A DNA stretch of 64,000 nt from positions 182,127-246,126 of the forward strand of contig CAYSAY010000001.1 in assembly GCA_964429215.1 (NCBI GenBank). The letters are read 5' to 3'. Each line of letters begins with the position of its first letter. The stretch's first letter is position 1. This DNA is from an uncultured Gammaproteobacteria bacterium (GTDB lineage Bacteria; Patescibacteriota; Microgenomatia; UBA8517). The notes beneath the pieces are model-generated. The model searched no databases. It worked only from the letters and a program-made list of their open reading frames with translations, and was not told where the DNA came from. Position numbers and translations under genes: made by a program. Positions 13,705-38,781 of this stretch are shown one piece after another.

Positions 13705-13860
13705 AGAAAGTTTGCCTGTGCGGTATAGAATAAAATTTTTGAATTAAAAACTCAAAAAACAATAAATCTATACGCACGGCAAGAACAAATTCGATTGTTA
13801 ATCTCCATTAAAATACTTCTATACTTGCATTAAATATATCTATCTAGTAACATTTCCATT

Positions 13861-15695: not shown

Positions 15696-15698
15696 ATT

Positions 15699-16229: not shown

Positions 16230-17068
16230 AAATACTTATATTAGGTTCTCAAGGCACACTCGGACAAGTATTGCTATCTGAATTTAATAACAACGGAAAT
16301 GAAACTGTTGGGTGGGATAGAGAAGACGTGGATATCACGACAGTTGAAGTAGAGTCCAAAATAATAGAATTAAAGCCAGATGTTATTTTAAATGCAACTG
16401 CTTATAATGCAGTTGACCCAATGCAGATTGATGAGGAAGCCAGAAAAGTTGGTTTTTTGATGAATGCTGAAGTTCCTGGTAAGTTAGCTAAAATTGCAAA
16501 GGAAATTGATGCGACTTTTGTTCATTATTCAACTGATTACGTCTTTGATGGAAAAAAAGAAGAAGGTTACAACGAAGAAGATACTCCAAATCCTATTTCT
16601 GTTTATGGTGAATCTAAATATGAAGGTGAAAAAAATGTCCAAAAGTTTGGAGAAAAGTACTATATTATTAGGCTTTGCAGATTGTTTGGGGAAAAAGGAA
16701 TTAGTGCTGCTAGTAAACGAAGTTTTGTAGAAATAATGCGAGGAGAAATTGAAAAAGAAGAATTAATGGTAAAAGATGAGGAAATCGCTTGTCCTACTTA
16801 TGCACCTGACGCGGCTAAATTTACAAAAGAACTTATAGAATCTAACTCACCTTGGGGAATTTATCATGGAACAAATTCTGGAAGTTGTACTTGGTATGGT
16901 TGGGCTGAAGAAATCTTTAAAAATTTAGGTAAAAGTCCTAAAATGATAAAAGGTTGTGCAAAAGATTATCATAATCCTGCACCTCATCCTCAATATTCAG
17001 TATTATTAAATACAAAAAGGCCTCTTCAAAGAAGTTGGCAGGAAGCTCTTTCTGAATTTTTAAATTAA
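16226..17068 (+). CDS. NDP-4-keto-6-deoxyhexose reductase (RmlD-like, NAD(P)-binding)
   Basis: MKILILGSQGTLGQ glycine-rich motif; YxxxK-containing SDR-like fold; position immediately after the epimerase. Confidence 0.65.
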   Translation: MKILILGSQGTLGQVLLSEFNNNGNETVGWDREDVDITTVEVESKIIELKPDVILNATAYNAVDPMQIDEEARKVGFLMNAEVPGKLAKIAKEIDATFVHYSTDYVFDGKKEEGYNEEDTPNPISVYGESKYEGEKNVQKFGEKYYIIRLCRLFGEKGISAASKRSFVEIMRGEIEKEELMVKDEEIACPTYAPDAAKFTKELIESNSPWGIYHGTNSGSCTWYGWAEEIFKNLGKSPKMIKGCAKDYHNPAPHPQYSVLLNTKRPLQRSWQEALSEFLN

Positions 17069-23277: not shown

Positions 23278-24396
23278 ATGCAAAAAATAGTAATTGTAAT
23301 GCCAGCTTGGAATGAAGGCGAGAATATTTCAAAAATGGTAAAAGTTCTTTTAGAGGAAGAGTTTCCAAAAATTGGGGCTGATATGAGTCTTTTGGTTGTA
23401 GATAATAATTCTAAGGACAATACGTTAGAAGTTGTAAAAGATGCTTCAAAGAAATTCAAAAATGTACATATTGTTCAACAGACTGGTAAAGGTCTTGGAT
23501 CTGCATATATAACTGGGTTTAAGTATGCAATGAAAGAACTTAATGCTGATGCTGTCATGGAAATGGATGCAGATTTTCAGCATCCACCTCGGTTTGTAAA
23601 GCCAATGGTTGATGCGTACATAAATGGTGCTGATTATTGTATTGGAAGTAGATATATTAAAGGTGGATCTGTTCCAAAAGAGTGGGCACTCTTTCGAAAG
23701 GCTGTTAGTTTTTTTGGAAATTTGTTTATAAGAATAGTTTTAATTAAACCTTCACTTCATGATTTAACGACAGGATTTCGGCTTACAAGAATAAAAGGAG
23801 TATTAGATCAGATAAATCTTGATAATTTAATGGAACCAGAAAGATTCGCCTATAAAGTTGATTTATTGTATCAATCAATTAAATTGTCTAAAAAAACTGT
23901 AGAGGTACCTTTAGAGTTTGCGTCACGTACTAAAGAAGTTTCTAAATTTAACCCAAAAGAAATGATCTCAACTTTTAAGGTGGCAATTATTTTGGGAATT
24001 AAAGACAAACAAAAAATAATTAAGTTTGGAATAGTTGGTGGAGCTGGATTTGTTGTTAATTTTATATTTTTAAGAGTATTTAGAAGTTTGGGATTTTCGG
24101 AGCTTTTAGTTTGGCTGTTTGCAACAGAGCTTGCAATTATTAATAACTATATTTTTAATAATATATGGACATTTAAAGATAGTGAAATAAAAGGATTAAA
24201 GGCAATTGTTTTAAAGTTTTTACAATTTAATTTAACTTCTGCAGGAGCACTTGTAATTCAATCTATAGCTGGCCCAATTGGAACAAGACTTTTAGGAGAG
24301 AAATATGATTTTATTGTGTTGGCTTTGGTTGTAGCGTTTCTTGTCCTTCCGTACAACTACTTGATGTACACAAAGGTGATTTGGAAGAAGAAATAG
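23278..24396 (+). CDS. Polyprenol-phosphate sugar synthase (DPM1/GtrB-like GT2) fused to a C-terminal GtrA-like domain
   Basis: IVIVMPAWNEGENI...LLVVDNNSKDNT GT2 core. C-terminal FGIVGGAGFVVNF...NNYIFNNIWTF matches the GtrA family. Confidence 0.7.
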   Translation: MQKIVIVMPAWNEGENISKMVKVLLEEEFPKIGADMSLLVVDNNSKDNTLEVVKDASKKFKNVHIVQQTGKGLGSAYITGFKYAMKELNADAVMEMDADFQHPPRFVKPMVDAYINGADYCIGSRYIKGGSVPKEWALFRKAVSFFGNLFIRIVLIKPSLHDLTTGFRLTRIKGVLDQINLDNLMEPERFAYKVDLLYQSIKLSKKTVEVPLEFASRTKEVSKFNPKEMISTFKVAIILGIKDKQKIIKFGIVGGAGFVVNFIFLRVFRSLGFSELLVWLFATELAIINNYIFNNIWTFKDSEIKGLKAIVLKFLQFNLTSAGALVIQSIAGPIGTRLLGEKYDFIVLALVVAFLVLPYNYLMYTKVIWKKK

Positions 24397-24397
24397 A

Positions 24398-24628
24398 TTA
24401 TATTTTTATGTCATCTAGAGATTCGTATTTGTCAGGATGCGCTTCATAAATCATTATTTTTAAACGGGTACCGAATAAGCCTTGTCTAGCCTTTTCTGCA
24501 CTTTGACTCTTTGCCTTGTCCATGCTTCCTGCTTTTAATACTGGGTTTTCAGCTTTTCCTAAATGTAGCCATTGGCTGCGGTTTCTCCAGATGCCGCTAA
24601 TTCCAGTTGTAATGATACGATCAGTCAT
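24398..24628 (-). CDS. Small hypothetical protein (76 aa)
   Basis: ORF only; no family recognised. Comparison with the L19, S16 and S21 ribosomal proteins found no match. Confidence 0.25.
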   Translation of the reverse strand: MTDRIITTGISGIWRNRSQWLHLGKAENPVLKAGSMDKAKSQSAEKARQGLFGTRLKIMIYEAHPDKYESLDDIKI

Positions 24629-24707
24629 TGCATATTATTAGTCTTAGTTTTGTTGTTTTGCCCACGTTTACTAATTATCTAATTACCTATTTAGCTAATT
24701 AACTAGT

Positions 24708-25838
24708 TCAGAGGAATGGTTCCCAGTTTGCAATTGGCATTGCGTTTTGGGAGATGAAGGCAAGTGAATAAAGATAAATTGGGATAATAATTACAGCAAG
24801 CGCAATTTTAAATTCCTTCTTAACTAATGTATCTTTAAATCCTAGTAATAAAAATGGAACTAAAGGTAGAGAATATCTCATTAAATCTCGGTGTGCCACG
24901 AACAACAGTGGAATAAAAAAAGTTAAAGCGAAGTAGAAATAAAGTGATAGTTTTTCTTGGTAAAGTTTATATACACCAAGTACTCCAATCAAATATATAA
25001 ATATAACTTCTTCTAGCCAAAATGTACCAACCCAAGGTGCAGAGTAATTAAATATTTGAAATGGGGGGAAGAACAGATGCATATTGTCCCCAGATTTAAA
25101 ATATACCAAAAAATCACCATATGTAAGTTTGTAAAAGGTAAATACTAATAAAACTGCAAATGGAATTAATAATAAAGGCAAGTATTTTTTAAATTCAATC
25201 TTTAATAAGTTTTTAAGATTTGGTGTTAAGATTTGTAATATATACGCTCCAAATAAAAGGATTGCAGGCGATTTTGTCATTTGAGCTAAGGCACCCCAGA
25301 GACCTGCATATAAATATTTTTTCTTTCCGAAGTAATACGTTGATGCTAATATGGCTGCTATAAAGAAAGGTTCTGGAGAACCAACAGATCTTACTATTAG
25401 CCACCTTGCGGGGAATACTGCAAAAATTGTTGTAAGCCACAACGAATCGGTTTCGTTTAAATATAGTCTTGCGTGCTTGTTAAAAAATAATAATGCTAAA
25501 AATGAACTAGCGACAGTTACAAATAACATTGCATATGGGTGACCAAATACTGGAGCAAATGATTTTATTAACATAGGAAATAGAGGGAAATGTGCTGAAT
25601 AATATTCATTTGTTAAGGGGAATTGATAATTTTTCCCAATTAATTCTGGGTTATACATAGTTTTCCCGGCTACGATATAAAGAGGACCGTCAAAATTTGC
25701 TACAATTGTGGCCATACCTTGTAGAGGTAGTGGAATCGTCCAAAATTGATTCATTCTTGCAAAAAAAGGTGTCCATATAAGTAAAGTGGGAATAAGGGTT
25801 AGAAGCAAAATAGGTAAAAGACTTTTTAGTGTTCTCAT
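24708..25838 (-). CDS. Polytopic membrane protein (putative GT-C-type glycosyltransferase)
   Basis: About 10 TM helices and an aromatic-rich composition; no specific family assigned. Confidence 0.5.
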   Translation of the reverse strand: MRTLKSLLPILLLTLIPTLLIWTPFFARMNQFWTIPLPLQGMATIVANFDGPLYIVAGKTMYNPELIGKNYQFPLTNEYYSAHFPLFPMLIKSFAPVFGHPYAMLFVTVASSFLALLFFNKHARLYLNETDSLWLTTIFAVFPARWLIVRSVGSPEPFFIAAILASTYYFGKKKYLYAGLWGALAQMTKSPAILLFGAYILQILTPNLKNLLKIEFKKYLPLLLIPFAVLLVFTFYKLTYGDFLVYFKSGDNMHLFFPPFQIFNYSAPWVGTFWLEEVIFIYLIGVLGVYKLYQEKLSLYFYFALTFFIPLLFVAHRDLMRYSLPLVPFLLLGFKDTLVKKEFKIALAVIIIPIYLYSLAFISQNAMPIANWEPFL

Positions 25839-25886
25839 AGTATTGATAATACCATATTGAGGCTACAATATGTTAGACTTATTCGT

Positions 25887-26600
25887 ATGCAGTCAATCTC
25901 TGTTTTTTTCCCTACTTATAATGAAGAAGGAAGTATTAAAGATACTGTTTTGAAAGCCGTAAATGTATTGGAGAGACAATTTAAACAATGGGAAATACTA
26001 ATTGTAAACGATGGTTCAACAGATAACACGAAAGAAATTGCGGAACAATTGATAAAGAATAAGCAAAGCTTGCTCTTAGGAAGAGTTAGAGTAATTAATC
26101 ATATTCAGAATAAAGGTTACGGAGCAAGTCTTCAGTCAGGATTTTATAATGCTAAGTATGATTGGATAGCATTTACTGATTCAGATGGTCAATTCGATTT
26201 TTCAGAAGTTAATAAGTTTGTTGATAAGCAAACAGAAACAAATGCTGATTTAATAATTGGGTATTATAAAAAGAGACAAGTTTCTAAATTTAAAATATTA
26301 ACGTCTAAAATGTGGGAGCTTTCTGTAATGATTCTGTTTGGATTGCATGTTAGGGATATTGATTGTGGTTTTAAACTAATTTCTAAAAAGGTAATAGAAA
26401 AAATCTCTAAACTTGAAAGTGAAAGGGGTGCGTTTATTTCAAGTGAGCTTTTGATTAAGTCAAAAAAATCCGGGTTTAAAATTGTAGAGATTGCTGTAAC
26501 GCATTATCCTAGGACAGAAGGCAAAGGAACAGGTAGAAACTTAAAAGTAATTGTTAAGAGCTTTGTTGATCTTTTTAGGTTGTGGAGAAAACTGAAATGA
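25887..26600 (+). CDS. Polyprenol-phosphate sugar synthase (DPM1/GtrB-like GT2)
   Basis: SISVFFPTYNEEGSIKDT...ILIVNDGSTDNT...FTDSDGQ. Confidence 0.7.
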   Translation: MQSISVFFPTYNEEGSIKDTVLKAVNVLERQFKQWEILIVNDGSTDNTKEIAEQLIKNKQSLLLGRVRVINHIQNKGYGASLQSGFYNAKYDWIAFTDSDGQFDFSEVNKFVDKQTETNADLIIGYYKKRQVSKFKILTSKMWELSVMILFGLHVRDIDCGFKLISKKVIEKISKLESERGAFISSELLIKSKKSGFKIVEIAVTHYPRTEGKGTGRNLKVIVKSFVDLFRLWRKLK

Positions 26601-28078
26601 GAAAATGGATTATTAAAAATTGGGTTTTAGTATTAATTTTATTAGTTGGAGCTTTTATGAGGCTATATAAAATTAATGAATACATGACTTTTTTAGGAGA
26701 TGAAGGAAGAGATGCAATTATAGTTCGTAATTTATTAGTTCATGCAGACCCAATTTTAATAGGCCCAGGAACATCAGTTGGAAGTATGTATCTAGGTCCT
26801 CTTTATTATTACTTTATGGCTCCATTTTTGTTACTTTCTAATTTTTCACCGATCGGTCCTGCTTTAGGAGTCGCATTTCTAGGAATAGCTACAATTTATT
26901 TGGTTTATGTTACAGGACGAGATTGGTTTAATGAGAAAGCAGGATTAATTGCATCACTTTTATTTGCCATATCACCAACAGTAATTGTATATTCAAGATC
27001 TTCATGGAATCCTAATATAATGCCTTTTTTTGCATTACTTGCTGTTTATTCAATCTGGAGAGTTTGGTCAAAGAAACAATACAAATGGCTACTTGTTACT
27101 GCGATTTCTTTTGCATTTGTAATTCAATCTCATTATTTAGGAGTACTTTTGGCTCCAATATTATTTATATATTGGCTTCTTTCGCGTACTCCTATACGCT
27201 ATACGATATTGTCTATTCTCTTGTTTTCTTTTCTAATGAGTCCAATTTTAGCTTTTGATATCAGACATGATTGGTTAAATTCAAAAGCTCTTTATAAATT
27301 TGTTACTGTCAGAGAAGAAACTGTTTCTATTAAGCCTTGGACTGCAATTCCAAAGACTTATCCAATCTATGAGCAAATTAATAATAGTTTATTGGTGGCA
27401 AAAAATGTAAATGTAGGTAGAGTGGTTTCATTTTTAATACTGATGTTGATTTTGTGGATAGTTGTTAAAAATAAAAAATCTGTAATTCAAAACAAAAACT
27501 TATTTATTTTGTTAGCGTGGTACATATCGGGTTTGATTGGTTTTGGCTTATATAAGCAAAATGTCTATGATCATTACTTTGGATTTTTATTTGCTGTGCC
27601 GTTTTTACTAGTAGGAGTTATTTTGTCTGAAAGACTATTAACTGGTAGAAAAACTTTAAATGTTATTGTTGCCGGAATAATAATTTATTTAGTTTTTATT
27701 AACATAAAAGCAAGTCCATTAAAACAGACTCCAAATAATCAGATGAGAAGGGCAGAAAATGTAGCAAATGAAATAATTAAAAGGTCAAATAATGAAAAGT
27801 TTAACTTGGCAGTTATTGCTGATAGGAATTATGAGGATGGGTATCAATATTTTTTGGAAAAAGAAAATGCAAAAATTGTTGAAATTGATGCTCAGATAAC
27901 TGAATCAGTAACAAATCAATTATTTGTTGTCTGTGAAAATGAAAAAACAAAGTGTAACCCAACAAATTCTCCTAAAGCAGAAGTTGCCAATTTTGGTTGG
28001 AGTAAGATTGAAGCAGAATGGGAACAAGATGGTGTTATAATCTATAAATTAATACATAATAAACCTGAAACAAAATGA
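26597..28078 (+). CDS. ArnT/PMT-like GT-C membrane glycosyltransferase
   Basis: TM1 followed by the loop motif FLGDEGRDAII...GPLYYY; multi-pass N-terminal domain plus a C-terminal soluble domain. ATGA overlap with the upstream GT2. Confidence 0.65.
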   Translation: MRKWIIKNWVLVLILLVGAFMRLYKINEYMTFLGDEGRDAIIVRNLLVHADPILIGPGTSVGSMYLGPLYYYFMAPFLLLSNFSPIGPALGVAFLGIATIYLVYVTGRDWFNEKAGLIASLLFAISPTVIVYSRSSWNPNIMPFFALLAVYSIWRVWSKKQYKWLLVTAISFAFVIQSHYLGVLLAPILFIYWLLSRTPIRYTILSILLFSFLMSPILAFDIRHDWLNSKALYKFVTVREETVSIKPWTAIPKTYPIYEQINNSLLVAKNVNVGRVVSFLILMLILWIVVKNKKSVIQNKNLFILLAWYISGLIGFGLYKQNVYDHYFGFLFAVPFLLVGVILSERLLTGRKTLNVIVAGIIIYLVFINIKASPLKQTPNNQMRRAENVANEIIKRSNNEKFNLAVIADRNYEDGYQYFLEKENAKIVEIDAQITESVTNQLFVVCENEKTKCNPTNSPKAEVANFGWSKIEAEWEQDGVIIYKLIHNKPETK

Positions 28079-29067
28079 ATTACCCTGAATCGCAATTAAT
28101 TTTAGAGGAAATTAAAAAGGCAAATAAGATTTTACTTAATTGCCATAGATCTCCTGACCCTGATAGTGTGGGTAGTGCGCTTTCAATTTATCATTTACTT
28201 CAGTTGCTTGGCAAAGAAAATATAAAAATTATTTGTCCTGATGAAATTCCGTATAATTGTAAATTTTTAGATTACTCTGAAAAAATTGAAAAAGTGAATT
28301 TTAACGAATTTGATTTTTCTCAATATGATTTATTTATAATTGCTGATTCTGGTAATTGGGATCAAGTTACGGGTAAAGACAATATTATAAATTCAAATAC
28401 TAAAAAGATAGTAATTGATCATCACTTTACTAATCCAAAATTTGGAGATATTAATATTTTAGATACAAATGCAGGTTCTACTGCTGAAGTTGTGGCTAAA
28501 TTTATAGAAGATATCAATTTAAAAATTGACAAAGTTTTGGCTACATCATTATTAACAGGCGTTATTGCAGATACATTATCATTTCAGACTGATGTAATTG
28601 GCGAATCGTCATTAACTATAGCCGATAGATTAATTAAAGTAGGTGCAGACAGAAACAATATCATTTTTAATTTAAATAAATCAAAATCTTTAGACGAAAT
28701 TCATTTGATAGGATATTTGCTGTCACATGTTAATGTCGAATTGGAATATAAATTCGCATGGTCTTCTGTTTCAAAAGATATATCCAGAGAGTATCCAATG
28801 AGTAAAGAAGCTAAATCTACAGTTGCAGGGTCATTTATACCTGCAATTCAGGATACAGATTTTGGTTTCGTACTTGAGGAAAGTGAGAAATATATTTCAG
28901 TGAGTTTTAGATCTAGAAATAATTTTGACGTTTCAAAAATAGCTGTGGAACTTGGCGGAGGAGGGCATAAGTCGGCTGCTGCTGCAAGAATTCCAAACTC
29001 AACTTATGAAGAGGCTGTAGAGAAAGTTTTAACAGCATGTAGAAAATATGCTAACAAAAATATTTAA
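28075..29067 (+). CDS. nrnA: DHH/DHHA1 phosphoesterase (NrnA-like oligoribonuclease / pAp phosphatase)
   Basis: HRSPDPDSVGSA, DHH and GGGGH(K) motifs. Confidence 0.75.
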   Translation: MNYPESQLILEEIKKANKILLNCHRSPDPDSVGSALSIYHLLQLLGKENIKIICPDEIPYNCKFLDYSEKIEKVNFNEFDFSQYDLFIIADSGNWDQVTGKDNIINSNTKKIVIDHHFTNPKFGDINILDTNAGSTAEVVAKFIEDINLKIDKVLATSLLTGVIADTLSFQTDVIGESSLTIADRLIKVGADRNNIIFNLNKSKSLDEIHLIGYLLSHVNVELEYKFAWSSVSKDISREYPMSKEAKSTVAGSFIPAIQDTDFGFVLEESEKYISVSFRSRNNFDVSKIAVELGGGGHKSAAAARIPNSTYEEAVEKVLTACRKYANKNI

Positions 29068-30420
29068 ATCGTTTTACACTCCTTGGAACTTGTTGATTTT
29101 AATAATTTTACTTTTTGCATTTATACTTAGAATTTATAGAATTGAATCACTTTTAGATTTTCATTACGACCAAGGAAGGGACGCCAAAATTATTTGGGAT
29201 TTATGGCATTCACAGAAATTATTTTTGATAGGTCCAACAACAGGACTTGAAGGAATATTTTTGGGTCCATTTTATTATTATTTAATTGCTCCGTTTTATT
29301 TAATTGGTGGAGGTAATCCTACTATTCCTTCAATGTTTTTATCATTACTCTATACCATAGCTTTATATATACTTTATTTGACAGGATTCAAAATTCAGGG
29401 TCGGTTTACAGGTTTTGTTGCACTTGTTGTAGGAGCTTTTTCAAACAACTTGGTTTTTTCAAGTAGGTGGCTATCAAACCCTACTCCAATTTTTTTAACT
29501 TCAATTATAATTTTCTATTTAATGGTATTAATTATTAAAAAGGAAAAGCCTATTTACTGGATTTTGGTTTATTTGGCAGTTGGTGTTTCATTACAACTTG
29601 AATTGGCAAGCGCAGTATTTTATCTACCAATATTGGCTATTTTTACGATTTGGCAGTTACGAAAAATTAATATCAAAATTTTTTTATTAGCTTGTGTGAT
29701 ATTTTTTGTAACTTTAATTCCTCAAATATTATTTAATTTTAAGCATCAGAATATATTACTTAATAATATTATTAATGAAGTCAAAAATGGAAAATCAGTT
29801 CAGATTAACTATGTTGATAGGATTGGAAATCTATGGAAAATAACAAAAGAGATATTTTAATACTTATATCATTATTTTTAGGTGTACCATTTGTTGGATT
29901 TACTTTATATTCTGGCAATAATGGTAATTTGTATGGTTACTATTTGACAGGATATTTTTTAATAATTATTTTGGCATTTTCATACTTAGCTTCGTATATA
30001 TGGAAATTTAAAATAGGAAAGATTTTAGTTATATTATTTTTATTTTTGTTTTTAAAAAATAATTTAGCAAAAACAATAAATAAATTAAATGTTGATGTAT
30101 TAGAATCTAAAGAGATCGTTTTGCAAAATCAGTTGATAGCAATTAATTGGATAAGAGAGGATGCTGGATTGGATAAATATAATATAGATATCTATGTTCC
30201 ACCTGTAATTCCGCATTCGTACAATTATTTGTTATTGTGGAATAATATAGTTCAAGAAGAAAAGGAAACAACTATTTTATACACTTTATATGAAGATGAT
30301 CCGCCTCATCCTGAAAGATTGAATGCATGGTTGGAACGTCAGAAAAAAATTGGTAAAATTCTTTATGAAGAAAGGTTTGGAGGTATAGTGGTGCAAAGAA
30401 GAGAGAGGATTAAAAAATGA
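29048..30420 (+). pseudogene. GT-C membrane glycosyltransferase paralog split into two frames (29048-29860 and 29833-30420): frameshift or sequencing error
   Basis: The N-terminal piece has HYDQGRDAKII...GPFYYYL, homologous to neighbouring GT-C genes. The second ORF continues the membrane domain in another frame. Combined length matches the intact paralogs. Confidence 0.45.
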
Positions 30421-31892
30421 AAAAGAATATAAAAGTTATCTTGTGGGCAATATTGATTGTATCGTTTTTTTTGCGTGTTTATAATTTTAAATCTTATTAT
30501 ATATTTTCTCATGATCAGGATTTGGCTTCATGGATTATTAAAGACATTGTTGTTAATGGACATCAAAGGCTTATAGGTCAAGAAACTTCAAGTCAAGGAG
30601 TTTTTATTGGATCTTTATTTTATTATATGCAGATTCCTTTTTACTGGATGTCTGGTATGAATCCATTAGGTGCTGTCTTTTTGTCGATTATTTTAGGTGT
30701 ATTTGCAACGTACAGTATCTTTTATGTGTTAAGCAAGATAAACAACGAGAAAGTTGGTTTAATTGGCGCATTTATTTACGCGGTGTCAGCTTTAATTGTT
30801 TTTACTGATAGGGAAGTGGCACCTACTATGCCAGTTGTTTTATGGACAGTGTGGTACCTTTATAGTTTGTTTTTGGTATATCAAAACAAATATATGAAAG
30901 GATTTATGTTGTGGGGATTACTAATTGGTTTGGTGTGGCATTTAAATTTAGCTTTAATAATCCTAGCACCTTTGTTGCTTATTGCCTTTTTATTTTCAAA
31001 ACGAAAAATTGATATTAAAGCAATTGTTGTAGGTCTTGTAGTTTTATTTGTAACTAGTTCTCCATTTATATTATTTGAAATACGTCATAATTTTAGTCAA
31101 ACAAAATCTGTAATATTATCATTAACTACTGATAAAGATCTTCGAGTTACTAATACTAAAGGCTATGCGAAGTTTGATCGTGTAATGCAAATTGTTAATA
31201 AAAATTCAATTGGTATTTTTTCAAAATCAAATTTCATTAGGCCTAGTATTGTAACTTTTGGATTATTACTTTTGTTGATTTACTTTATAAAAAGTAAAAA
31301 AATTAATGGTTTTTTTGGTTTGACTTATTTAATGTGGATATTTTTATATCTTTTCTTTTTTACTCTTAACTCACTAAACGTCTCTGAATATTATTTCAAT
31401 GGAATGAACATTATTTGGATAATTGTATCATCAGTTGCAGCTTCTCAGCTTTTAGAACGAAGAAATGGGAAAATAATCTTTTATATCTTGGGGGTATTGT
31501 TTGTGATAACAAATTTTAATTTTATTTTTAACTTTAATACAGATAAAAAAGGATATGTAGAAAAAATGAATTTAGTTAAATTTATAAATGAAAATCGTAA
31601 GGAACAAGGTTACCCTTGTATATCAATTTCTTATATTACAAAGCCTGGTTATGAATTGGGTTATAGACAATTATTCTGGTTAAATGATATGCATGTTAAT
31701 AATCCAAGTTCAAATTCTCCTGTGTACACCATTGTTTACCCACATAGTTTAGTGGATAAGATTGATGTAAGCTTTGGGTCGTTGGGTCTTATTTATCCTG
31801 ACTTCAAGAGATATAATAAGAATGAAGTTGAGGAAAGCTGTAAAGGTGATAACTCGAATTTAACCGATCCAATGTTTGGATATGTAGAGTAA
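30417..31892 (+). CDS. ArnT/PMT-like GT-C membrane glycosyltransferase paralog
   Basis: SHDQDLASWII...GSLFYYM loop motif; about 12 TM helices. Confidence 0.6.
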   Translation: MKKNIKVILWAILIVSFFLRVYNFKSYYIFSHDQDLASWIIKDIVVNGHQRLIGQETSSQGVFIGSLFYYMQIPFYWMSGMNPLGAVFLSIILGVFATYSIFYVLSKINNEKVGLIGAFIYAVSALIVFTDREVAPTMPVVLWTVWYLYSLFLVYQNKYMKGFMLWGLLIGLVWHLNLALIILAPLLLIAFLFSKRKIDIKAIVVGLVVLFVTSSPFILFEIRHNFSQTKSVILSLTTDKDLRVTNTKGYAKFDRVMQIVNKNSIGIFSKSNFIRPSIVTFGLLLLLIYFIKSKKINGFFGLTYLMWIFLYLFFFTLNSLNVSEYYFNGMNIIWIIVSSVAASQLLERRNGKIIFYILGVLFVITNFNFIFNFNTDKKGYVEKMNLVKFINENRKEQGYPCISISYITKPGYELGYRQLFWLNDMHVNNPSSNSPVYTIVYPHSLVDKIDVSFGSLGLIYPDFKRYNKNEVEESCKGDNSNLTDPMFGYVE

Positions 31893-31906
31893 AAAAACAA
31901 AATAAT

Positions 31907-32644
31907 ATGAAGATCTCAATTGTAATACCATCATATAACGAAGAGAATAATATCCGTACAGGAGCACTTTCCGGAATGGTTGATTATTTAAATGATCAGA
32001 AATATAAATGGGAAATTATTGTAGTTGATGATGGATCAACAGACAAAACTGCAGAACTTGTAGAAAAATTTGCAGCATCACACAAAGGAGTTACAATTTT
32101 AAAAGAACCTCATAGAGGTAAAGGAGGAACAGTTATAGCCGGAATGCTTAAGGCTACAGGCGATATTGTGATTTTTGATGATATGGATCAAGCAACACCG
32201 ATAGATCAATTAGAAAAGATTTTACCTAAATTTAAAAATGGATTTGATATAGTAATAGGTTCTCGTGCTGGTCGTGAAGGAGCTCCCTTAATAAGAAAGA
32301 CAATGGCCTTGGGCTTTTCATTACTTCGAAATTTAGTTTTACAACTACCATATAAAGATACTCAGTGTGGGTTTAAAGCATTTACAAAGGATGCTTCTAC
32401 TAAAATTTTTAAGAAATTACAGATTTTTAACAACAAACAGGCTCAGTCTGGTGCTTCAGTTTCCGCTGGATTTGATTTAGAAATTTTATATGTCGCGAGA
32501 AAACTTAAATTAAAAGTATCGGAAGTTCCTGTCGTTTGGCATCATAAAGAGGGAACTAAAGTTAATCCAATTAAGGATTCTTGGGAGGGACTTCGTGATT
32601 TGTTAAAGGTAAGAGTTAATGCAATTATGGGAAAATATAAATAG
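31907..32644 (+). CDS. Polyprenol-phosphate sugar synthase (DPM1/GtrB-like GT2)
   Basis: MKISIVIPSYNEENNI...IIVVDDGSTDKT...FDDMDQ. Confidence 0.7.
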   Translation: MKISIVIPSYNEENNIRTGALSGMVDYLNDQKYKWEIIVVDDGSTDKTAELVEKFAASHKGVTILKEPHRGKGGTVIAGMLKATGDIVIFDDMDQATPIDQLEKILPKFKNGFDIVIGSRAGREGAPLIRKTMALGFSLLRNLVLQLPYKDTQCGFKAFTKDASTKIFKKLQIFNNKQAQSGASVSAGFDLEILYVARKLKLKVSEVPVVWHHKEGTKVNPIKDSWEGLRDLLKVRVNAIMGKYK

Positions 32645-32661
32645 TTGTATTTTTAAAATAA

Positions 32662-34044
32662 ATGATACATATATTTAGTAAATATAAAGAATTTATTTTT
32701 TTAATATTTATATTATTGGTTGGATTGTATCTACGAGTTTATGATATCCATGTTCGTACTTCATTTGATGCAGATCAAGAATGGTTGGCTTTCAGAGCAA
32801 AAGAATTATCTAAAGGTGATCTGCCACTATTAGGACCTGTGACATCGATAGGAAGCTTTTCAATAGGTCCTGGATATGTTTACTTATTATCGTTTGCTGG
32901 AATATTTACATCAAATTCTCCAATAACTGGTGTATATTTGTCTATAACTTTAGGTATTGTTACTTTAATTGGATTTTTTCTGTTTATATATAATTTTGTT
33001 GACAAGAAAACTTCTTACATTGTATTGTTTTTGTTAGCAATCTCGTCCAGGTTTATTTTTTGGGATCAATTGCCATGGGCTCCATCTTTATTTCTTATAT
33101 CCCAAATAATTCTATTGTCAGGAGCTTATTTATCTAACAAAAATAAATGGGGTTATCCTTTGATGTCTTTAGGATTGGCGTCTGGTTTTCAATCACATTT
33201 TGGAATATTTTTAAGCTTGTTATCAATTTTGATTTATTTGATCATGGTAAAACCAGTCAAATTAAATTTAAAGATGTTTGTATTATCTGCTGCAATTATT
33301 ATTGTAGGGTTTTTGCCTAATTTTGTGTTTGATATTACTCACAATTTTACAAATGTTAAAAAACTAGTCAATGTATTGCAGGATAATGGTGTAGAGTATT
33401 TTGTTAGTTTTAATAAAATAATAAATGTCTTGAGTGCAAATACAATATCTGCAATTTATCCTAGGGATGCAAGTTTTGTAGATAAAATTTTGACTAAAAG
33501 CTTGTTTGCATTAGTTTTGGTCAATACTATAAGTTTATTGAGAGATAAGAAATATAAGAATATGGCACTGCTATTGCTGGCTACTGCAATAATCCCTGCT
33601 GTAGTTTTTTTCATTCAACAAGGTAAGTTTTCCGAATATTATCTTGTAATGACTGTCCCATCTTTAATTGTGATGATGTCTTTATTAATTAAAAAAGTAG
33701 TTAACAAAAAAGTAATTTTAGCGATCATGCTTGTCACGGCAATTTCACTTAATATACCTGAAATTAAAAATAAATACGTAATATGGAATTTAAAGGCAAA
33801 GGAGGATGTTGCAAAGGAAATGATTAGGTTAGCTGGTGTTGATGATTATGGAATATCTTTAACAACTAGTTTGGGTAATAATTTTGGATTTAAATATGTA
33901 TTGGATTACTATGGAATTAAGGCCAAGTTGCCTCCTGAAAAAGGGGAAACAAGAATATTTTCAATTATAATTCCAGAAGGATTTGATGGAATGGTAGGAA
34001 TGAAAGACTATAGTGGCATCGGGCTTCGCTGGTCAGGAATATAA
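32662..34044 (+). CDS. ArnT/PMT-like GT-C membrane glycosyltransferase paralog
   Basis: FDADQEWLAF...GPGYVYL loop motif; polytopic. Confidence 0.6.
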   Translation: MIHIFSKYKEFIFLIFILLVGLYLRVYDIHVRTSFDADQEWLAFRAKELSKGDLPLLGPVTSIGSFSIGPGYVYLLSFAGIFTSNSPITGVYLSITLGIVTLIGFFLFIYNFVDKKTSYIVLFLLAISSRFIFWDQLPWAPSLFLISQIILLSGAYLSNKNKWGYPLMSLGLASGFQSHFGIFLSLLSILIYLIMVKPVKLNLKMFVLSAAIIIVGFLPNFVFDITHNFTNVKKLVNVLQDNGVEYFVSFNKIINVLSANTISAIYPRDASFVDKILTKSLFALVLVNTISLLRDKKYKNMALLLLATAIIPAVVFFIQQGKFSEYYLVMTVPSLIVMMSLLIKKVVNKKVILAIMLVTAISLNIPEIKNKYVIWNLKAKEDVAKEMIRLAGVDDYGISLTTSLGNNFGFKYVLDYYGIKAKLPPEKGETRIFSIIIPEGFDGMVGMKDYSGIGLRWSGI

Positions 34045-34074: not shown

Positions 34075-34917
34075 TTGTTAATTGTGTCAACTGAAATTTC
34101 AAAAATAGTTTTGTTTAAAGATCAGAAAATTCGACGAGATTGGAACAAAAAAGAGGAGAAATGGTATTTTTCTGTAGTAGATGTGGTTTCCGCACTATCT
34201 TCAAGTCATAATCCTCAGGTTTATTGGAGAGTTTTAAAGAAAAGGTTGCTTGACGAAGGATCAAATGAAACCGTTACAAAATGTAACGGTTTAAAAATGA
34301 AAGCGTCAGATGGAAAAATGAGATTAACAGATGTTGCTGATACTGAAACAATATTAAGACTTATTCAATCAATTCCATCACCAAAAGCTGAACCGTTTAA
34401 ATTGTGGCTAGCAAGGGTTGGCTATGAAAGGATTGAAGAAACAGAAGATCCAGAAAAAGCAATTCAGAGAGCTTTATCTACATATCTTAAAAAAGGTTAC
34501 TCAAAATCGTGGGTAGATTTGAGACTTAAAAGTATCGAAATAAGAAAGGATCTCACAGATGAATGGGAAGAACGAGGCGTTAAAAAATCGAATGAATTTG
34601 CAATACTAACTGATGATATTACATTTGCTTGGGCTGGTTTAAGAACCAAAGATTATAAAAACTACAAAAGTTTAAAGAAAGAGAACTTAAGGGACAACAT
34701 GACCAATTTAGAGTTGGTTTTAAATATGCTTGCTGAAACAGCAACAACTGAAATATCAAAAACTAAAAAACCTGATACATTTCCTAAAAACAGAATTGTA
34801 GCTCGAGAGGGTGGAAATATTGCAGGAAAAGCCAGAGAAGAAATTGAAGCAAAATCAGGTAGAAAAGTAATTAGCAAATACCGTTTTGATCAAAAAAGTG
34901 ATAAATTACTAAAATAA
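34075..34917 (+). CDS. Bro-N domain protein (phage antirepressor / DNA-damage-inducible-like)
   Basis: KEEKWYFSVVDVVSAL...NPQVYWRVL and KAEPFKLWLARVGYERIEE resemble Bro-N domain motifs; Lys/Glu-rich C-terminus. The start is uncertain, possibly the GTG at 34084. Confidence 0.6.
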   Translation: MLIVSTEISKIVLFKDQKIRRDWNKKEEKWYFSVVDVVSALSSSHNPQVYWRVLKKRLLDEGSNETVTKCNGLKMKASDGKMRLTDVADTETILRLIQSIPSPKAEPFKLWLARVGYERIEETEDPEKAIQRALSTYLKKGYSKSWVDLRLKSIEIRKDLTDEWEERGVKKSNEFAILTDDITFAWAGLRTKDYKNYKSLKKENLRDNMTNLELVLNMLAETATTEISKTKKPDTFPKNRIVAREGGNIAGKAREEIEAKSGRKVISKYRFDQKSDKLLK

Positions 34918-34924: not shown

Positions 34925-35659
34925 ATGAAAATAGCTGTTGTTACTGGAACAAGTTATGGATTAGGTAAAAGTATTGCGAAATTACTTTTGTCCAATGGCT
35001 ATAAAGTATATGGAATATCTAGGACAAAAACTGATATATCAAACTCAAACTTTGTATGGTTAAAGTGTAATTTATTAGAAAATGAAGATATTGAAAATAT
35101 TGCTACTCAAGTTTTTGAAGAAAGTATTGATTTATTGATAAATAATGCAGGCGTAGTATTTGCTGAGAATGGGTTAGGATTTACAAAAGAAGTTTTTGAT
35201 AAAACCTTTGGTGTTAATTTAATCGCCCCAGTAATGTTAACTATGGTTTTGAGGGACAAACTCGATAACAATTTGGTAATAAACATTTCATCGACCTCAG
35301 ATCGTTTTGCAGAAAGTGGACTTGCAATGTATTGTTCTTCAAAGTCTGCTGTTGAAATATATTTTGATGCAATTGCGATAGAAAATCCGCAAATTAAATT
35401 TATTAATATTTTACCTGTTTATATTGATACTCCAATGCTGGATAAAATTTCAAAAGACTTAAATTTTTCGACAAATGACGCAAATACACCAGAATTAGTG
35501 GCAGGTGGAGTGATTAATGTAATAAATAAAAAAATCCAATTTGATTCAGGAAGTAGGGTAATGATTTTGACAAATAAAAATATTGTTTCTGAAACAATAG
35601 ATTCAGAAAAACTTTGGTATTATAATATCGATACAAAGGAATTTAAGAAAATTAAATAG
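34925..35659 (+). CDS. Short-chain dehydrogenase/reductase (SDR)
   Basis: VVTGTSYGLGKSIA Rossmann motif, NNAG, and S...YxxSK catalytic region. Confidence 0.7.
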   Translation: MKIAVVTGTSYGLGKSIAKLLLSNGYKVYGISRTKTDISNSNFVWLKCNLLENEDIENIATQVFEESIDLLINNAGVVFAENGLGFTKEVFDKTFGVNLIAPVMLTMVLRDKLDNNLVINISSTSDRFAESGLAMYCSSKSAVEIYFDAIAIENPQIKFINILPVYIDTPMLDKISKDLNFSTNDANTPELVAGGVINVINKKIQFDSGSRVMILTNKNIVSETIDSEKLWYYNIDTKEFKKIK

Positions 35660-35783: not shown

Positions 35784-37307
35784 ATGAACTTCAAAAACAT
35801 ATTTAATGAATGGAAATGGACAATATTTGTATTGGTGTTGATTTTATTATTTAGCTTCGGCATTCGATATTATAATTTAACTATTCTTCCAGTTTTTGTA
35901 GATGAAGCAATTTATGTCAGGTGGTCACAAGTTATGGCAACGGAACCTACACTTCGGTTTCTTCCACTCTCTGACGGGAAGCAGCCTTTGTATATGTGGG
36001 TACTTATGTTTTTGATCAGTAAATTTAGTGATCCGTTATTTATAGGTCGACTGATATCAGTTTTTACAGGTTCTGCTACTTTGATCGGTGTATTTGTGTT
36101 TAGTTATTTATTGTTTAAATCTAAGAGGGTATCTATTTTTTCGGCAGCACTATATGGTTTATCACCATTTACAGTGTTTTTTGAAAGAATGGCTTTAGTT
36201 GATTCTACATTGTCTATGTTTGGAATTTGGACTGCAATATTTGGGTATTTAACTTCGAAATATAAACGTCTTGATTTGGCAATGATAACAGGTTTCATGT
36301 TAGGTTTTGCCTCACTTACAAAATCTCCTTCTCTTTTTATTGCCTTACTTATTCCATTGTTTTGGTTTTTAAATGGATGGAAGGGAATTTGGAAGCTTTC
36401 CGCTACTTACATAATTGCGTTTGCAATGTATAACATACAGAGACTTGGTCCAAATTTTGGTCAATTAAGTTCAAGGACTGCAGATTATGTTTTGCCAATC
36501 AATCATATATTTACAAATTTACTTGATCCATTGATTCCCCACCTTAAAGATTTTGTCGTTTGGCTGTTGTCCATGGGACCTGCTTCTTTGATAGTAATTA
36601 TATTAATTGGTATAGTCGTTGGTGTAAAAAAACACTTTAAAGAAACTTTTGTTCTATTAGTTTGGGGATTAGTACCTGTAATAATCCAAGCTGAATTAGG
36701 TATAACCTTTACAGCAAGATATATATTTTTTACATTGCCATATTTATTTATTTTGGCGGGTCTTTCCGTATTGGCTAAACATAAATTTTTAAGAATGGTC
36801 TCTTTCGTTTCTATATTGATCTTTGTTTTTCAGAGTTCTATTTTTATATTTTATTTATTAACAAATCCTGAAAAAGCCAATCTTCCGAGAGGTGAACGTT
36901 CAGGTTATTTAGAAGAATGGACTGCAGGTCAAGGTATTAAAGAAATATCACAGTATCTTCGTGTAGAAGAATCAAAAGAACCTGGTAAACAAATTGTTGT
37001 AGGTACTGAAGGATTTTTTGGAACGTTGCCTGATGGTCTTCAAATATATGTAAATGATTTACCAAACATAATTGTTAAAGGGGTTGGTGTTATAGTTGTT
37101 GAAACACCTCAAACACTTAAAGACGCCTTTAAATCTGGAAATAAAACTTATTTAGTTATGAATAAGTCAAGATATCGAGGAGACCCTGATAAAGAAGGGT
37201 TAAAATTGATTGCAAGGTATCCTAAAGGTCTACGATTAACTGATTCTGATCAGTACGCAAAACTTGGTCCACAAGAAGAACTCCTCTTTTTTGAACTTGT
37301 AAAATGA
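35784..37307 (+). CDS. ArnT/PMT-like GT-C membrane glycosyltransferase
   Basis: VFVDEAIYVRW loop-1 DE motif; about 12 TM helices; C-terminal soluble domain. Confidence 0.65.
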   Translation: MNFKNIFNEWKWTIFVLVLILLFSFGIRYYNLTILPVFVDEAIYVRWSQVMATEPTLRFLPLSDGKQPLYMWVLMFLISKFSDPLFIGRLISVFTGSATLIGVFVFSYLLFKSKRVSIFSAALYGLSPFTVFFERMALVDSTLSMFGIWTAIFGYLTSKYKRLDLAMITGFMLGFASLTKSPSLFIALLIPLFWFLNGWKGIWKLSATYIIAFAMYNIQRLGPNFGQLSSRTADYVLPINHIFTNLLDPLIPHLKDFVVWLLSMGPASLIVIILIGIVVGVKKHFKETFVLLVWGLVPVIIQAELGITFTARYIFFTLPYLFILAGLSVLAKHKFLRMVSFVSILIFVFQSSIFIFYLLTNPEKANLPRGERSGYLEEWTAGQGIKEISQYLRVEESKEPGKQIVVGTEGFFGTLPDGLQIYVNDLPNIIVKGVGVIVVETPQTLKDAFKSGNKTYLVMNKSRYRGDPDKEGLKLIARYPKGLRLTDSDQYAKLGPQEELLFFELVK

Positions 37308-37320: not shown

Positions 37321-38781
37321 GTGGAAGAAGAAATTGGAATAGAAACAGTTAAGGAACGAAGTGTCCGCGGAATTGTCGTATTGACTGGTAGAACTTTTTT
37401 ACTTCAAATTATAAGTTTAGTTGCACAACTTTTTTTATTTGCTTATCTTGGTAGATACGAATTTGGAGTATTTGCCATAGTTTCTGCAATTATTAACTTT
37501 CTTGTTTATTTTTCGGATATTGGCCTTGCTGCAGCTTTAATACAGAAAAAGGAGAAGCCAACTGAATTAGATTTAAAAACCACATTTACAGTACAACAGA
37601 TTTTAGTATTTTTAATAATAGGAGTAGTTTTACTTTTAACCCCATTTTTTGCTGAAAAATACTCATTAACTACTGATGGGAGAGTACTTTTGTATGCATT
37701 AAGTGCATCGTTAGTTTTTTCATCTTTTAAGAGTATCCCATCAGTGTTGTTAGAGAGAAAGCTGGAATTTGTTAAATTAGTTTTTCCTCAGATTTTAGAG
37801 CAAATTGTCTATAACTTAGTACTTGTAGTAATGGCCATGAACGGAGCAGGTTTGGCTAGTTTTAGTGTAGCCGTTCTTATTAGGGGTGTTGTAGGCCTTG
37901 CAACTATTTATTATCTACAGCCTTGGAAACCCGGTATTGCATTTTCAAGAGAAACATTAAAAGGACTGTTTAAGTTTGGAATTCCATATCAAATTAATAC
38001 GTTTCTTGCTACATTAAAAGACGATGGCATGACCATTGTGTTAGGAAGTATAATCGGCCCTGTTGGGATTGGAATACTTTCTTTTGCTCAAAAAATTGCA
38101 AGGCTTCCGCTTACTTTTTTTATGGATACTGTAACACGTGTAACTTTTCCTGCATTTTCCAGACTTCAAGATTCTAAACATGATTTAGAAAGAAGCGTAA
38201 CTAGATCAATATTCTTTATTTGCTTGTTGGTGTTTCCAAGTCTTGCTGGAATAATTATTCTATCTCCTCTACTTGTTAAGGTCGTTCCTAGATATGAACA
38301 ATGGACCCCAGCTCTTTTGCCAATTATATTTATTTCGATAAACTTTGCCTTTGCTGGAGCTACGACACAACTAACTAATTTACTAAATGCTATTGGAAAG
38401 ATAAAAATAACTTTTTATCTCATGATTATGTGGACAGTTTTAACTTGGTTAATGGTTCCATTCCTTGCACTTAAATTTGGTGTAAATGGTGCATCCGTTG
38501 GATATTCATTAGTTGGGGCATCATCTTTGATAGCTATTTTTATAGCGAAAAAATATGTTAATTTTTCAATAGGAGATTCAATTGTTAAACCTTTAATCGG
38601 AACTGTATCTATGATGATCATACTATTAATTGTACGTAACTTTTTAGATGTAAGTGTTAATTCAATGTTTATATTAGGGTTAGTAGGTGTTCTTGTTTAT
38701 GGGTCTGCAATGATATCTATGATTGGTGTTTCTTTAATAGAAGATGCTAAAAAAAGCTTTAAAACTATATTTTCAAAATAA
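37321..38781 (+). CDS. Wzx-like oligosaccharide/polysaccharide flippase (MOP superfamily)
   Basis: About 14 TM helices; N-terminus RSVRGIVVLTGRTFLLQIISLV is typical of Wzx-family flippases. Confidence 0.65.
   Translation: MEEEIGIETVKERSVRGIVVLTGRTFLLQIISLVAQLFLFAYLGRYEFGVFAIVSAIINFLVYFSDIGLAAALIQKKEKPTELDLKTTFTVQQILVFLIIGVVLLLTPFFAEKYSLTTDGRVLLYALSASLVFSSFKSIPSVLLERKLEFVKLVFPQILEQIVYNLVLVVMAMNGAGLASFSVAVLIRGVVGLATIYYLQPWKPGIAFSRETLKGLFKFGIPYQINTFLATLKDDGMTIVLGSIIGPVGIGILSFAQKIARLPLTFFMDTVTRVTFPAFSRLQDSKHDLERSVTRSIFFICLLVFPSLAGIIILSPLLVKVVPRYEQWTPALLPIIFISINFAFAGATTQLTNLLNAIGKIKITFYLMIMWTVLTWLMVPFLALKFGVNGASVGYSLVGASSLIAIFIAKKYVNFSIGDSIVKPLIGTVSMMIILLIVRNFLDVSVNSMFILGLVGVLVYGSAMISMIGVSLIEDAKKSFKTIFSK

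Follow-up and report, generated by a model that had tools for sequence, protein, structure and literature searches.

A probable cell-envelope glycosylation locus of Microgenomates with three polyprenyl-phosphate sugar synthase-like enzymes and numerous GT-C transferases

The cell envelope of bacteria of the Candidate Phyla Radiation (CPR; Patescibacteria) is almost unstudied, and their ultra-small cells are thought to be attached to other cells. What, then, is the role of a glycosylation island of ~50 kb in such a bacterium, in which putative synthases of lipid-linked sugars stand next to membrane transferases of the GT-C type? The question is raised by a 64,000-nucleotide stretch of DNA of the Microgenomatia (GenBank assembly GCA_964429215.1, contig CAYSAY010000001.1, positions 182,127 to 246,126 of the forward strand), called the window below, whose positions are counted from its first letter and whose genes are named after them. 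A preliminary description, made from the sequence, had singled out the segment 23278–34044 as three repeated modules, each a GT2 gene resembling DPM1 and GtrB (23278, 25887 and 31907; here synthase-1, synthase-2 and synthase-3) with an adjacent GT-C gene (24708 on the minus strand, 26597 and 32662). A separate gene prediction for the source contig (ENA ERZ27247837, k141_2432886, 195.7 kb) gives the same coordinates for all its genes.

The reading that we favor, with a probability of roughly 0.7, is that the segment belongs to the core of a locus for glycosylation of the cell envelope, shared throughout Microgenomates (Woesebacteria, Shapirobacteria and their relatives), in which lipid-linked sugars feed GT-C transferases. 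The order of its genes is shared by at least 80 species-level Microgenomates genomes. The functional statements that follow rest on homology, predicted structure and gene order, from which we infer the activities, the sugars, the flipping and the acceptor.

The three GT2 enzymes

All three GT2 proteins match Pfam Glycos_transf_2 (E-values from 1e-24 to 4e-32) and, in an all-versus-all BLAST of the window proteins, are each other's closest paralogues (~28% identity over 214–237 residues). Seven other GT2 genes of the window, which score as rhamnosyltransferase-, MftF- or SunS-like, align to them only in the nucleotide-binding N-terminal part of ~100 residues. In sequence searches of solved structures, each of the three proteins has its best matches solely in the dolichyl-phosphate mannose synthase of Pyrococcus furiosus (PfDPMS), ArnC and GtrB. 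The earlier assignment to the DPM1/GtrB group is upheld by these matches, and the three enzymes are by type polyprenyl-phosphate sugar synthases and do not belong to the processive synthases. A D-x-D motif and a glutamine are invariant in 48, 80 and 60 orthologues of synthases 1, 2 and 3, respectively. Because the three are old paralogues with conserved orthologues (58–75% identical to the window protein for synthase-2, about 34–88% for synthases 1 and 3), it is plausible that they have distinct roles, i.e. that they would handle different sugars or anomers.

Four transmembrane helices are predicted in synthase-1 and none in synthases 2 and 3. The latter two thus have no C-terminal membrane hairpin, the absence of which had been named beforehand as grounds for rejecting the assignment, nor is human DPM1 known to have a membrane helix. 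A missing hairpin is not a valid refutation, because PfDPMS from which residues 230–352 have been removed stays membrane-targeted and active (PMC5526996). Roles of individual residues are taken from the studies of PfDPMS (PMC5526996) and ArnC (PMC12690121): the lipid phosphate is contacted by R117, R131 and S135 of PfDPMS, which correspond to R128, R137 and S141 of ArnC, and the donor phosphate by an arginine (R202 and R205, respectively).

Almost the whole of synthase-1 can be aligned with PfDPMS (PDB id: 5mlz; E 6e-42, 36% identity over 327 residues), the catalytic part being 38% and the membrane domain 33% identical. A match to PF04138 (GtrA_DPMS_TM) at residues 255–375 (E 1.4e-14), together with the four predicted helices, confirms the GtrA-like domain that had been recognized on this protein. 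The domain is not a new fusion, because the near-full-length alignment identifies it with the known architecture of PfDPMS, or ‘type-III DPMS’. The two proteins share the GT-A domain, the interface helices and the four-helix GtrA-like domain (5MLZ/9EP0; PMC5526996, PMC12992685). They differ in their hosts, a hyperthermophilic archaeon for PfDPMS and a low-GC CPR bacterium known from metagenomes for synthase-1, and in the lipid, which is dolichol for PfDPMS and would be a bacterial polyprenol for synthase-1.

The residues expected of such an enzyme are largely in place. Synthase-1 has the full set of lipid-phosphate and donor-phosphate residues (R125, R140, S144 and R217), and these, together with D97/D99/Q101 and the S124-R125-Y126 segment, are invariant or nearly so among the 48 orthologues. 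Equivalents of PfDPMS R131, S135, F177, R202, K208, N248 and N277 are retained, the polar-pocket asparagines of the membrane domain being N261 (45 of 48 orthologues) and N290 (all 48). The position of PfDPMS K178 is occupied by alanine (42/48), with a conserved lysine two residues downstream (46/48). By similarity to PfDPMS, synthase-1 probably makes polyprenyl-phosphate mannose.

The type-III DPMS was defined in 2026 by three motif sets, namely the motif 89-DADxQHPP-96 (where x is L, F or Y), the residues R117 (SRY), R131, S135 and K178 (KIL), and, in the membrane domain, the polar-pocket residues N248 and N277 with the gating F338, and was concluded to be a trait of hyperthermophilic archaea; the same study proposes, without proof, that the membrane domain translocates the product (PMC12992685). 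Synthase-1 (23278–24396) and its 48 orthologues satisfy most of this definition. Residues 97–104 of synthase-1 read DADFQHPP, and among the orthologues the two aspartates and the glutamine are present in all 48, the phenylalanine in 46, the histidine in 47 and the prolines in 41 and 44. In an ungapped extension beyond the HMMER alignment, the position of the gating residue F338 is taken by Leu357 (L, M, I or V in orthologues) and that of R341 by Asn360 in 48 of 48 orthologues; asparagine is also what all non-Thermococcales type-III enzymes are reported to have at the R341 position (PMC12992685). Synthase-1 would thus be a bacterial relative, from a low-GC environmental organism, of an enzyme type recently called restricted to hyperthermophilic archaea.

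Synthase-2 has ArnC (E 4e-15), DPMS and GtrB as its best matches in the Protein Data Bank (PDB). D98, D100, Q102 and R130 are invariant in its 80 orthologues, while S140 and R209, the counterparts of ArnC S141 and R205, are found in 75 and 78 of them. Position 136 is variable (lysine in 38 of 80). The C-terminal helix is strongly amphipathic, with a hydrophobic moment of 0.71.

Synthase-3 is closest in sequence to DPMS (E 3e-18), followed by ArnC and GtrB. Its predicted structure (pLDDT 84.6) has a GT-A fold, and the top 21 Foldseek matches of the model are exclusively ArnC, GtrB and DPMS (TMq 0.64–0.74 over 230–257 alignment columns for 245 residues). It keeps D92/D94/Q95, S119-R120 and R130, with R120 and R130 invariant, and carries a variable residue at the R202 position. 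Helices at residues 128–145 and 221–240 of the model might lie in the membrane interface, for which enzymes of this family have amphipathic helices behind strand 5 and at the close of the catalytic domain, and their hydrophobic moments (0.43 and 0.42) are no higher than those of control surface helices. Orthologues of synthase-3 are labelled dolichyl-phosphate beta-glucosyltransferase by NCBI, JGI and UniRef. These names and a GalU-like gene at 9732 are the grounds for likening synthase-3 to ALG5, according to which it probably makes polyprenyl-phosphate glucose. Among NCBIfam models, synthases 1 and 3 score highest against streptococcal PgfS.

GT-C transferases and the conserved gene order

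The genes that flank the three synthases (24708, 26597 and 32662) had all been described as GT-C transferases, and all three are of the GT-C type, each on different evidence. The protein encoded by 26597 (also labelled 26582) matches Pfam PMT_2 (53.5 bits) and PMT (35.8 bits), both over the curated cut-off; 29048, 30417 and 35784 are likewise above the PMT_2 cut-off. The product of 32662 has no Pfam match and is paralogous along its full length to 26582 (E 3e-16 over 422 residues) and to 30417 (E 3e-13). The product of 24708 has no Pfam match and no sequence match in the PDB, while having more than 1,700 homologues, and some of its orthologues carry a precomputed PMT_2 match, one being called a Gpi18-like mannosyltransferase by JGI. 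An AlphaFold model of it, built on 35 homologues, has a pLDDT of 87 and a pTM of 0.89, and its high-probability Foldseek matches are all GT-C enzymes: STT3, ALG9, ArnT (TMq 0.61), ALG12, ALG6, PglB, AftA, PimE and Pmt4. The model therefore has a GT-C fold. Its first outer loop contains the invariant sequence N48-x-D50-G-P, in which D50 is invariant among the 35 homologues.

The intact ArnT/PMT-type proteins have 8–13 hydropathy peaks each. A D-E or D-Q pair stands right after the first transmembrane helix in all nine PMT_2-type paralogues of the window (D-E in 26597, D-Q in 32662). Single-sequence searches with 26582, 24708 and 32662 against solved structures give nothing useful, and a profile is needed to reach ArnT: that of the nine PMT_2-type paralogues matches ArnT (PDB id: 5ezm) at E 8.6e-6. 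The comparison with CsbB/YfhO pairs had implied a YfhO-like partner; it does not apply to these genes, as the GT-C proteins next to the synthases match PMT_2/PMT or nothing, and the only YfhO match in the window is a 790-residue protein at 42971.

One GT-C gene is split into two reading frames (29048–30420) that encode 270 and 195 residues and overlap by 28 nucleotides, the second being in the −1 frame. The same split is present in two related genomes, at 13021–14477 of locus L008 and 13163–14547 of locus L010, while ~40 other relatives have a single open reading frame (ORF) of 480–540 residues. The split versions are without a membrane segment of ~25 residues at the junction. The conservation of both halves (54–68% identity) suggests a genuine fission of the gene rather than a fault of the assembly.

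Whether the synthases and their neighbours belong together can be judged from related genomes. One genome per species was scanned with synthase-2, which gave at least 490 related loci, and the best 80 (58–75% identical) were taken; their ORFs were called and each was assigned to its best BLAST match among the window proteins. The lineages named among the 80 loci are Candidatus Woesebacteria, Shapirobacteria, Amesbacteria, Collierbacteria, Microgenomates and Patescibacteria group. The recurring order is trmD (minus strand), synthase-1, 24708 (minus strand), synthase-2, 26582, a DHH gene, 29048, in some cases 30417, synthase-3, 35784, in some cases a PTPS_related-type GT-C, the MOP-family gene 37321, 38744 and the GT2 gene 40392.

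In this order a GT-C of the 26582 type directly follows synthase-2 in 77 of 80 loci, and in almost every case the stop codon of the synthase gene overlaps the start codon of the next. Of the 52 loci with synthase-1 or 24708, 49 have both; the two genes are absent from this position in Shapirobacteria-type loci. Synthase-3 is followed by a 35784-type GT-C in 52 of 67 loci, with a gap of less than 100 nucleotides in 44, although some of the ‘synthase-3’ matches of low identity (36–45%) may be other paralogues. A gene of the 32662 type directly follows synthase-3 in only three of the 67. Orthologues of 32662 are few and 36–55% identical, while the genes that flank them in the same loci are 50–84% identical; 32662 is a patchy accessory paralogue. 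Two of the three synthase–transferase pairs first described, 23278/24708 and 25887/26597, are thus conserved as such, and the third conserved pair is 31907/35784 instead of 31907/32662.

The count of three modules also understates the number of transferases. The segment 23278–34044 contains five GT-C genes, including the split one, and the window contains 16 (17 of the 44 ORFs of the island) for three synthases, so the donors are probably shared by many transferases. Among the additional GT-C genes of the segment, 30417 is found in only about a third of the relatives.

Pathway, acceptors and alternative interpretations

According to the favored reading, the three GT2 enzymes would each move one sugar from a nucleotide sugar to polyprenyl phosphate on the cytoplasmic face of the membrane. 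Synthases 2 and 3 would bind the membrane through amphipathic interface helices, and the membrane domain of synthase-1 may help to flip its own product. The lipid-linked sugars would then be moved to the outer face, and the MOP-family protein 37321 is a candidate translocator for the products of synthases 2 and 3; archaeal AglR offers an analogy for a translocator of this family. Outside, the ArnT/PMT-like GT-Cs and the one small GT-C would use the donors, each with the acidic motif in its first outer loop. The conserved pairs (23278/24708, 25887/26597 and 31907/35784) would form the core of the system, and the variable extra GT-Cs would probably share the three donors and diversify linkages. 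The most likely acceptor would be a wall glycopolymer that the island's cytoplasmic GT2 and GT4 enzymes and 6-deoxyhexose pathway produce, and/or secreted surface proteins. A wall glycopolymer is indicated because the island contains cytoplasmic transferases, 6-deoxyhexose genes and a MOP flippase.

Several observations weigh against this interpretation. All NCBIfam equivalog scores of the synthases are far under the cut-offs (e.g. ArnC 70.8 versus 529 bits, PgfS 93.6 versus 500), and the putative sugars are assigned by similarity only. Each synthase also departs from its solved relatives. Synthase-1 has N43 in place of PfDPMS D39, which contacts the guanine (aspartate in 29 and asparagine in 15 of 48 orthologues); synthase-2 has an invariant tyrosine, Y127, at the position of ArnC R128; and synthase-3 has alanine at the position of PfDPMS Ser135, where the S135A mutation costs PfDPMS much of its activity (PMC5526996). 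Apart from the fused PF04138 domain, which gives the first module a GtrA-like part, no separate small GtrA-type gene is present in the 64 kb; the second and third modules are without that component, which leaves two of the three donors without a flippase of this type. No initiating phosphoglycosyl transferase is seen in the window. Co-evolution, a check proposed in the preliminary description, was assessed by correlating distance matrices from 32 loci, controlled for trmD. The partial correlation for synthase-1 and 24708 (0.67) is the highest between any synthase and a GT-C; those for the second and third pairs (0.35 and 0.36) do not exceed the values for non-partners, and the largest of all (0.69) is between two GT-Cs. 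We do not count these values against the pairing as such. Finally, within the window alone the adjacency of synthases and GT-Cs is expected by chance: with 17 of 44 island ORFs of the GT-C type, a gene has such a neighbour with a probability of ~63% (~25% for three genes), so that adjacency in the window by itself is not significant. It is the conservation of gene order among relatives that makes the pairing real.

Such odds would also suit an interpretation in which the GT2 proteins are cytoplasmic transferases of the ordinary kind, whose acceptor is either soluble or an oligosaccharide linked to lipid diphosphate, and their proximity to GT-C genes merely reflects gene density. The lack of transmembrane helices in synthases 2 and 3, the sub-threshold NCBIfam scores and the presence of soluble GT-A enzymes (e.g. 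glucosyl-3-phosphoglycerate synthase) lower in the list of fold matches of synthase-3 point the same way. This is highly improbable, considering that polyprenyl-phosphate glycosyltransferases alone make up the top matches in sequence and in fold, that none of the seven other GT2 genes of the window has such matches, that residues binding the lipid phosphate are conserved, and that synthase-1 aligns with DPMS near full length, membrane domain included. The stop/start-overlap adjacency, moreover, is kept in 77 of 80 species.

The nature of the acceptor admits another alternative, in which polyprenyl-phosphate mannose or another hexose is passed to PMT-like GT-Cs for O-glycosylation of Ser/Thr-rich secreted proteins, whether sortase-anchored or pilus-forming. 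The GT-Cs match Pfam PMT and PMT_2, their family profile gives weak matches to yeast Pmt1 (E 0.075) and Pmt4 (E 0.14), the best NCBIfam score of synthases 1 and 3 is that of streptococcal PgfS, and the window opens with two sortase genes and four genes of Ser/Thr-rich secreted proteins. Parallels are found in actinobacterial Ppm1/Pmt and in streptococcal GtrB/PgtC2 and Pgf, with precedents in PMC11092751 and PMC5882110. We regard protein O-glycosylation as a serious alternative that is on balance doubtful. Among solved structures the GT-C family is closest to ArnT, which modifies a lipid, and not to a PMT; PMT_2 is broad and also takes in transferases that do not act on proteins; the 16 GT-C genes far exceed the need of known protein O-mannosylation systems; and the island resembles one for polysaccharide synthesis, with a MOP flippase, rhamnosyltransferase-like GT2s and a 6-deoxyhexose pathway.

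The abundance of GT-C genes could instead mean that these enzymes act in series, building or branching a glycan outside the cell from polyprenyl-phosphate monosaccharides, in the manner of mycobacterial lipomannan and arabinan synthesis or of the luminal ALG3/9/12/6/8/10 steps, and do not add single-sugar decorations. Sixteen GT-C genes of at least five families, with tandem arrays of paralogues and three donor synthases, would be in keeping with such stepwise assembly, as would the presence of both a DPMS-like and an ALG5-like synthase and the matches of the 24708 model to ALG9, ALG12, ALG6, PimE and AftA. The window also encodes proteins of the GT87 type, a family that includes mycobacterial mannosyltransferases. 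Stepwise assembly is nonetheless unlikely: the number of accessory GT-Cs varies among close species, which is better explained by optional decorations, and the MOP flippase and the cytoplasmic GT2 and GT4 enzymes suggest a conventional backbone linked to lipid diphosphate. A more ambitious form of the same idea, which we consider quite unlikely, is that ~5% of Microgenomates DNA is given to an archaeal- or eukaryote-style apparatus, in which a self-flipping type-III-like DPMS, an ALG5-like synthase and a third synthase feed at least 16 GT-Cs that assemble or branch a surface glycan outside. Were this the case, GT-C cassettes that vary between species would give rise to surface diversity, and type-III DPMS would not be confined to hyperthermophilic archaea.

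The lipid-linked donor pathway favored here has several known counterparts. In the GtrA/GtrB/GtrX and CsbB/GtcA/YfhO systems (PMC5836110, PMC7389260), the logic is the same: a GT2 synthase, translocation and an outer GT-C, with the genes side by side. The preliminary description had likened the segment to these systems, and the placement of a GT2 synthase beside a GT-C, as in Gtr, CsbB/YfhO and ArnC/ArnT, agrees with it. As a complete analogy it is too tidy. Gtr and CsbB systems have a separate GtrA or GtcA gene, whereas the window has only the fused domain of synthase-1; GtrB and CsbB have two C-terminal transmembrane helices, which synthases 2 and 3 are without; the GT-C of CsbB/YfhO is of the YfhO family (PF09586), whereas the neighbours of the synthases in the window are PMT_2/ArnT-like; and GT-C genes in the window greatly exceed the synthases. 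The locus is not a strict member of either system.

By gene arrangement, the locus can be likened to Streptococcus mutans, which also has more than one synthase/GT-C pair in one locus: SccN/SccM and SccP/SccQ are paired undecaprenyl-phosphate-glucose synthases and GT-Cs that attach different glucose side chains to the polyrhamnose wall polymer (PMC11754754). The window differs from the S. mutans locus in its three synthases, each of another subtype, and in its much larger number of GT-Cs, and its locus is conserved at the level of the class instead of being serotype-specific. GacI/GacL of S. pyogenes are a related pair.

ArnC and ArnT (9BHC, 5EZM; PMC12690121) are the best solved relatives of synthase-2 and of the GT-C family, respectively, though the window has no ArnE/F-like genes and synthase-2 no transmembrane helices. 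The acceptor must also differ from that of ArnC/ArnT, because Microgenomates are not known to have lipid A. In Actinobacteria, soluble or peripheral synthases likewise feed many GT-Cs (Ppm1/Pmt, mycobacterial PimE, AftA, Emb and PpgS/Rv3779); these systems have no close sequence relatives here (the PpgS model scores 33–47 bits against a cut-off of 370), and the phylum and the envelope differ.

Iterated synthase/GT-C pairs are already published, so the mechanism is not new. The novelty lies in the conservation throughout a class of CPR bacteria, in the presence of three synthase subtypes in an operon-like block, in a set of GT-Cs that is unusually large for a genome of less than ~1.1 Mb and in a type-III-like DPMS from a bacterium. 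Open-access papers and preprints yielded no description of this locus in CPR, Patescibacteria, Woesebacteria or Microgenomates. Complete genomes of relatives measure 0.80–1.08 Mb, of which the ~50-kb island makes up ~5%. The locus offers three candidate lipid-linked donors and three conserved donor/transferase pairs as a testable entry point, and the variable extra transferases could explain surface diversity between species. Its value lies in annotation and in the guidance of experiments.

Gene layout and neighbouring genes

The features of the block and of the genes downstream of it are collected in Table 1. The G+C content of the window is ~31%, and the plus strand holds nearly all genes. 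From 25887 to 34044, neighbouring genes overlap or stand no more than 17 nucleotides apart, for which reason they look like one operon, its structure being judged from gene overlaps only. A scan for promoters and terminators in the 22.4–38.9 kb region found sites no more numerous than in shuffled sequence. The stop codon of synthase-2 and the start codon of 26597 overlap as ATGA in the window, and the transferase is probably translationally coupled to the synthase.

Table 1. Genes of the synthase/GT-C block and of its downstream flank (window coordinates)
Feature	Coordinates	Strand	Remarks
Synthase-1	23278..24396	+	372 aa; GT2 domain and four-helix GtrA/DPMS-type membrane domain
Small GT-C-fold transferase	24708..25838	-	376 aa; convergent with synthase-1 and its conserved neighbour
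Synthase-2	25887..26600	+	237 aa; ArnC/GtrB-like, without transmembrane helices
ArnT/PMT-like GT-C (also labelled 26582)	26597..28078	+	493 aa; conserved partner of synthase-2
DHH/DHHA1 phosphoesterase, NrnA-like	28075..29067	+	Pfam DHH and DHHA1; NCBIfam NrnA 93.5 bits, below cut-off
Split ArnT/PMT-like GT-C, N-terminal part	29048..29860	+	PMT_2 35.5 bits; paralogue of 26582 and 30417
Same split GT-C, C-terminal part	29833..30420	+	Matches intact orthologues over their C-terminal half
ArnT/PMT-like GT-C, variable accessory paralogue	30417..31892	+	PMT_2 36 bits; paralogue of 26582 and 29048
Synthase-3	31907..32644	+	245 aa; DPMS/ALG5-like, without transmembrane helices
GT-C paralogue of the 26582 family	32662..34044	+	460 aa; lineage-variable insertion after synthase-3
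Bro-N-domain protein	34075-34917		Between synthase-3 and GT-C 35784
Short-chain dehydrogenase	34925-35659		Between synthase-3 and GT-C 35784
ArnT/PMT-like GT-C	35784..37307	+	PMT_2 and PMT above cut-off; outside the segment first described
MOP/Wzx-family flippase	37321..38781	+	Polysacc_synt_3 183 bits; NCBIfam MOP family 125 bits, below cut-off

The only sizeable gap in the block is the stretch of 311 nucleotides between synthase-1 and 24708. Most of it is occupied by a 76-residue ORF on the minus strand (24398–24628), called on the source contig, which has no Pfam match and no predicted membrane helix. The DHH/DHHA1 gene (28075–29067) is embedded between GT-C genes, which it overlaps by 4 and 20 nucleotides, and is found at the same position in 37 of the 80 loci. 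The Bro-N gene 34075 is common to close relatives. A phage or mobile origin of the block formed by 32662 and the Bro-N gene was considered and dropped, as no close relatives were found in a viral contig collection by a method that finds close relatives only.

The island extends from 13.8 to 63.5 kb of the window and, besides the synthases and GT-Cs, includes the seven non-synthase GT2 genes, a GT4 gene, the MOP flippase and the YfhO-like protein. Tandem arrays at 46908–51851, 51848–54284 and 56626–62629 comprise three PTPS_related-type proteins (28–35% identical), two of the GT87 type (31%) and four of the PMT_2 type (26–32%). Two polytopic proteins, one encoded at 38744–40417 (557 residues) and the other at 54836–56707 on the minus strand (623 residues), are 30% identical over 536 residues, and neither has a Pfam or NCBIfam match. 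In relatives 38744 keeps its position behind the MOP flippase, so that it could encode a polymerase, a ligase or a further transferase.

A nucleotide-sugar gene set at 13861–17068 consists of cytidylyltransferase-like, 4,6-dehydratase-, RmlC- and RmlD-like genes. The first, 13861, scores as a glucose-1-phosphate cytidylyltransferase (276 bits versus a cut-off of 300) rather than as RmlA, on which account the 6-deoxyhexose may be CDP-linked. The GalU-like gene (9732–10610) scores 311 bits, the cut-off being 327.

At the start of the window, two sortase genes (472–1002 and 7180–7674) are accompanied by the genes of four paralogous secreted proteins (2595–3830, 3935–6136, 6129–7160 and, on the minus strand, 7707–8306). 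All four proteins have signal peptides and N-terminal stretches rich in Ser, Thr and Asn, and the 3935 protein ends in a hydrophobic segment with a basic tail, like a sorting signal. It is possible that these sortase-flanked secreted proteins are glycosylation acceptors or form a pilus-like locus.

Many of the related metagenome-assembled genome records (L002, L006, L012, L019 and others) are titled ‘uncultured Gammaproteobacteria bacterium’, yet they are syntenic with and 58–75% identical to Woesebacteria and Shapirobacteria, and these titles look like mislabels.

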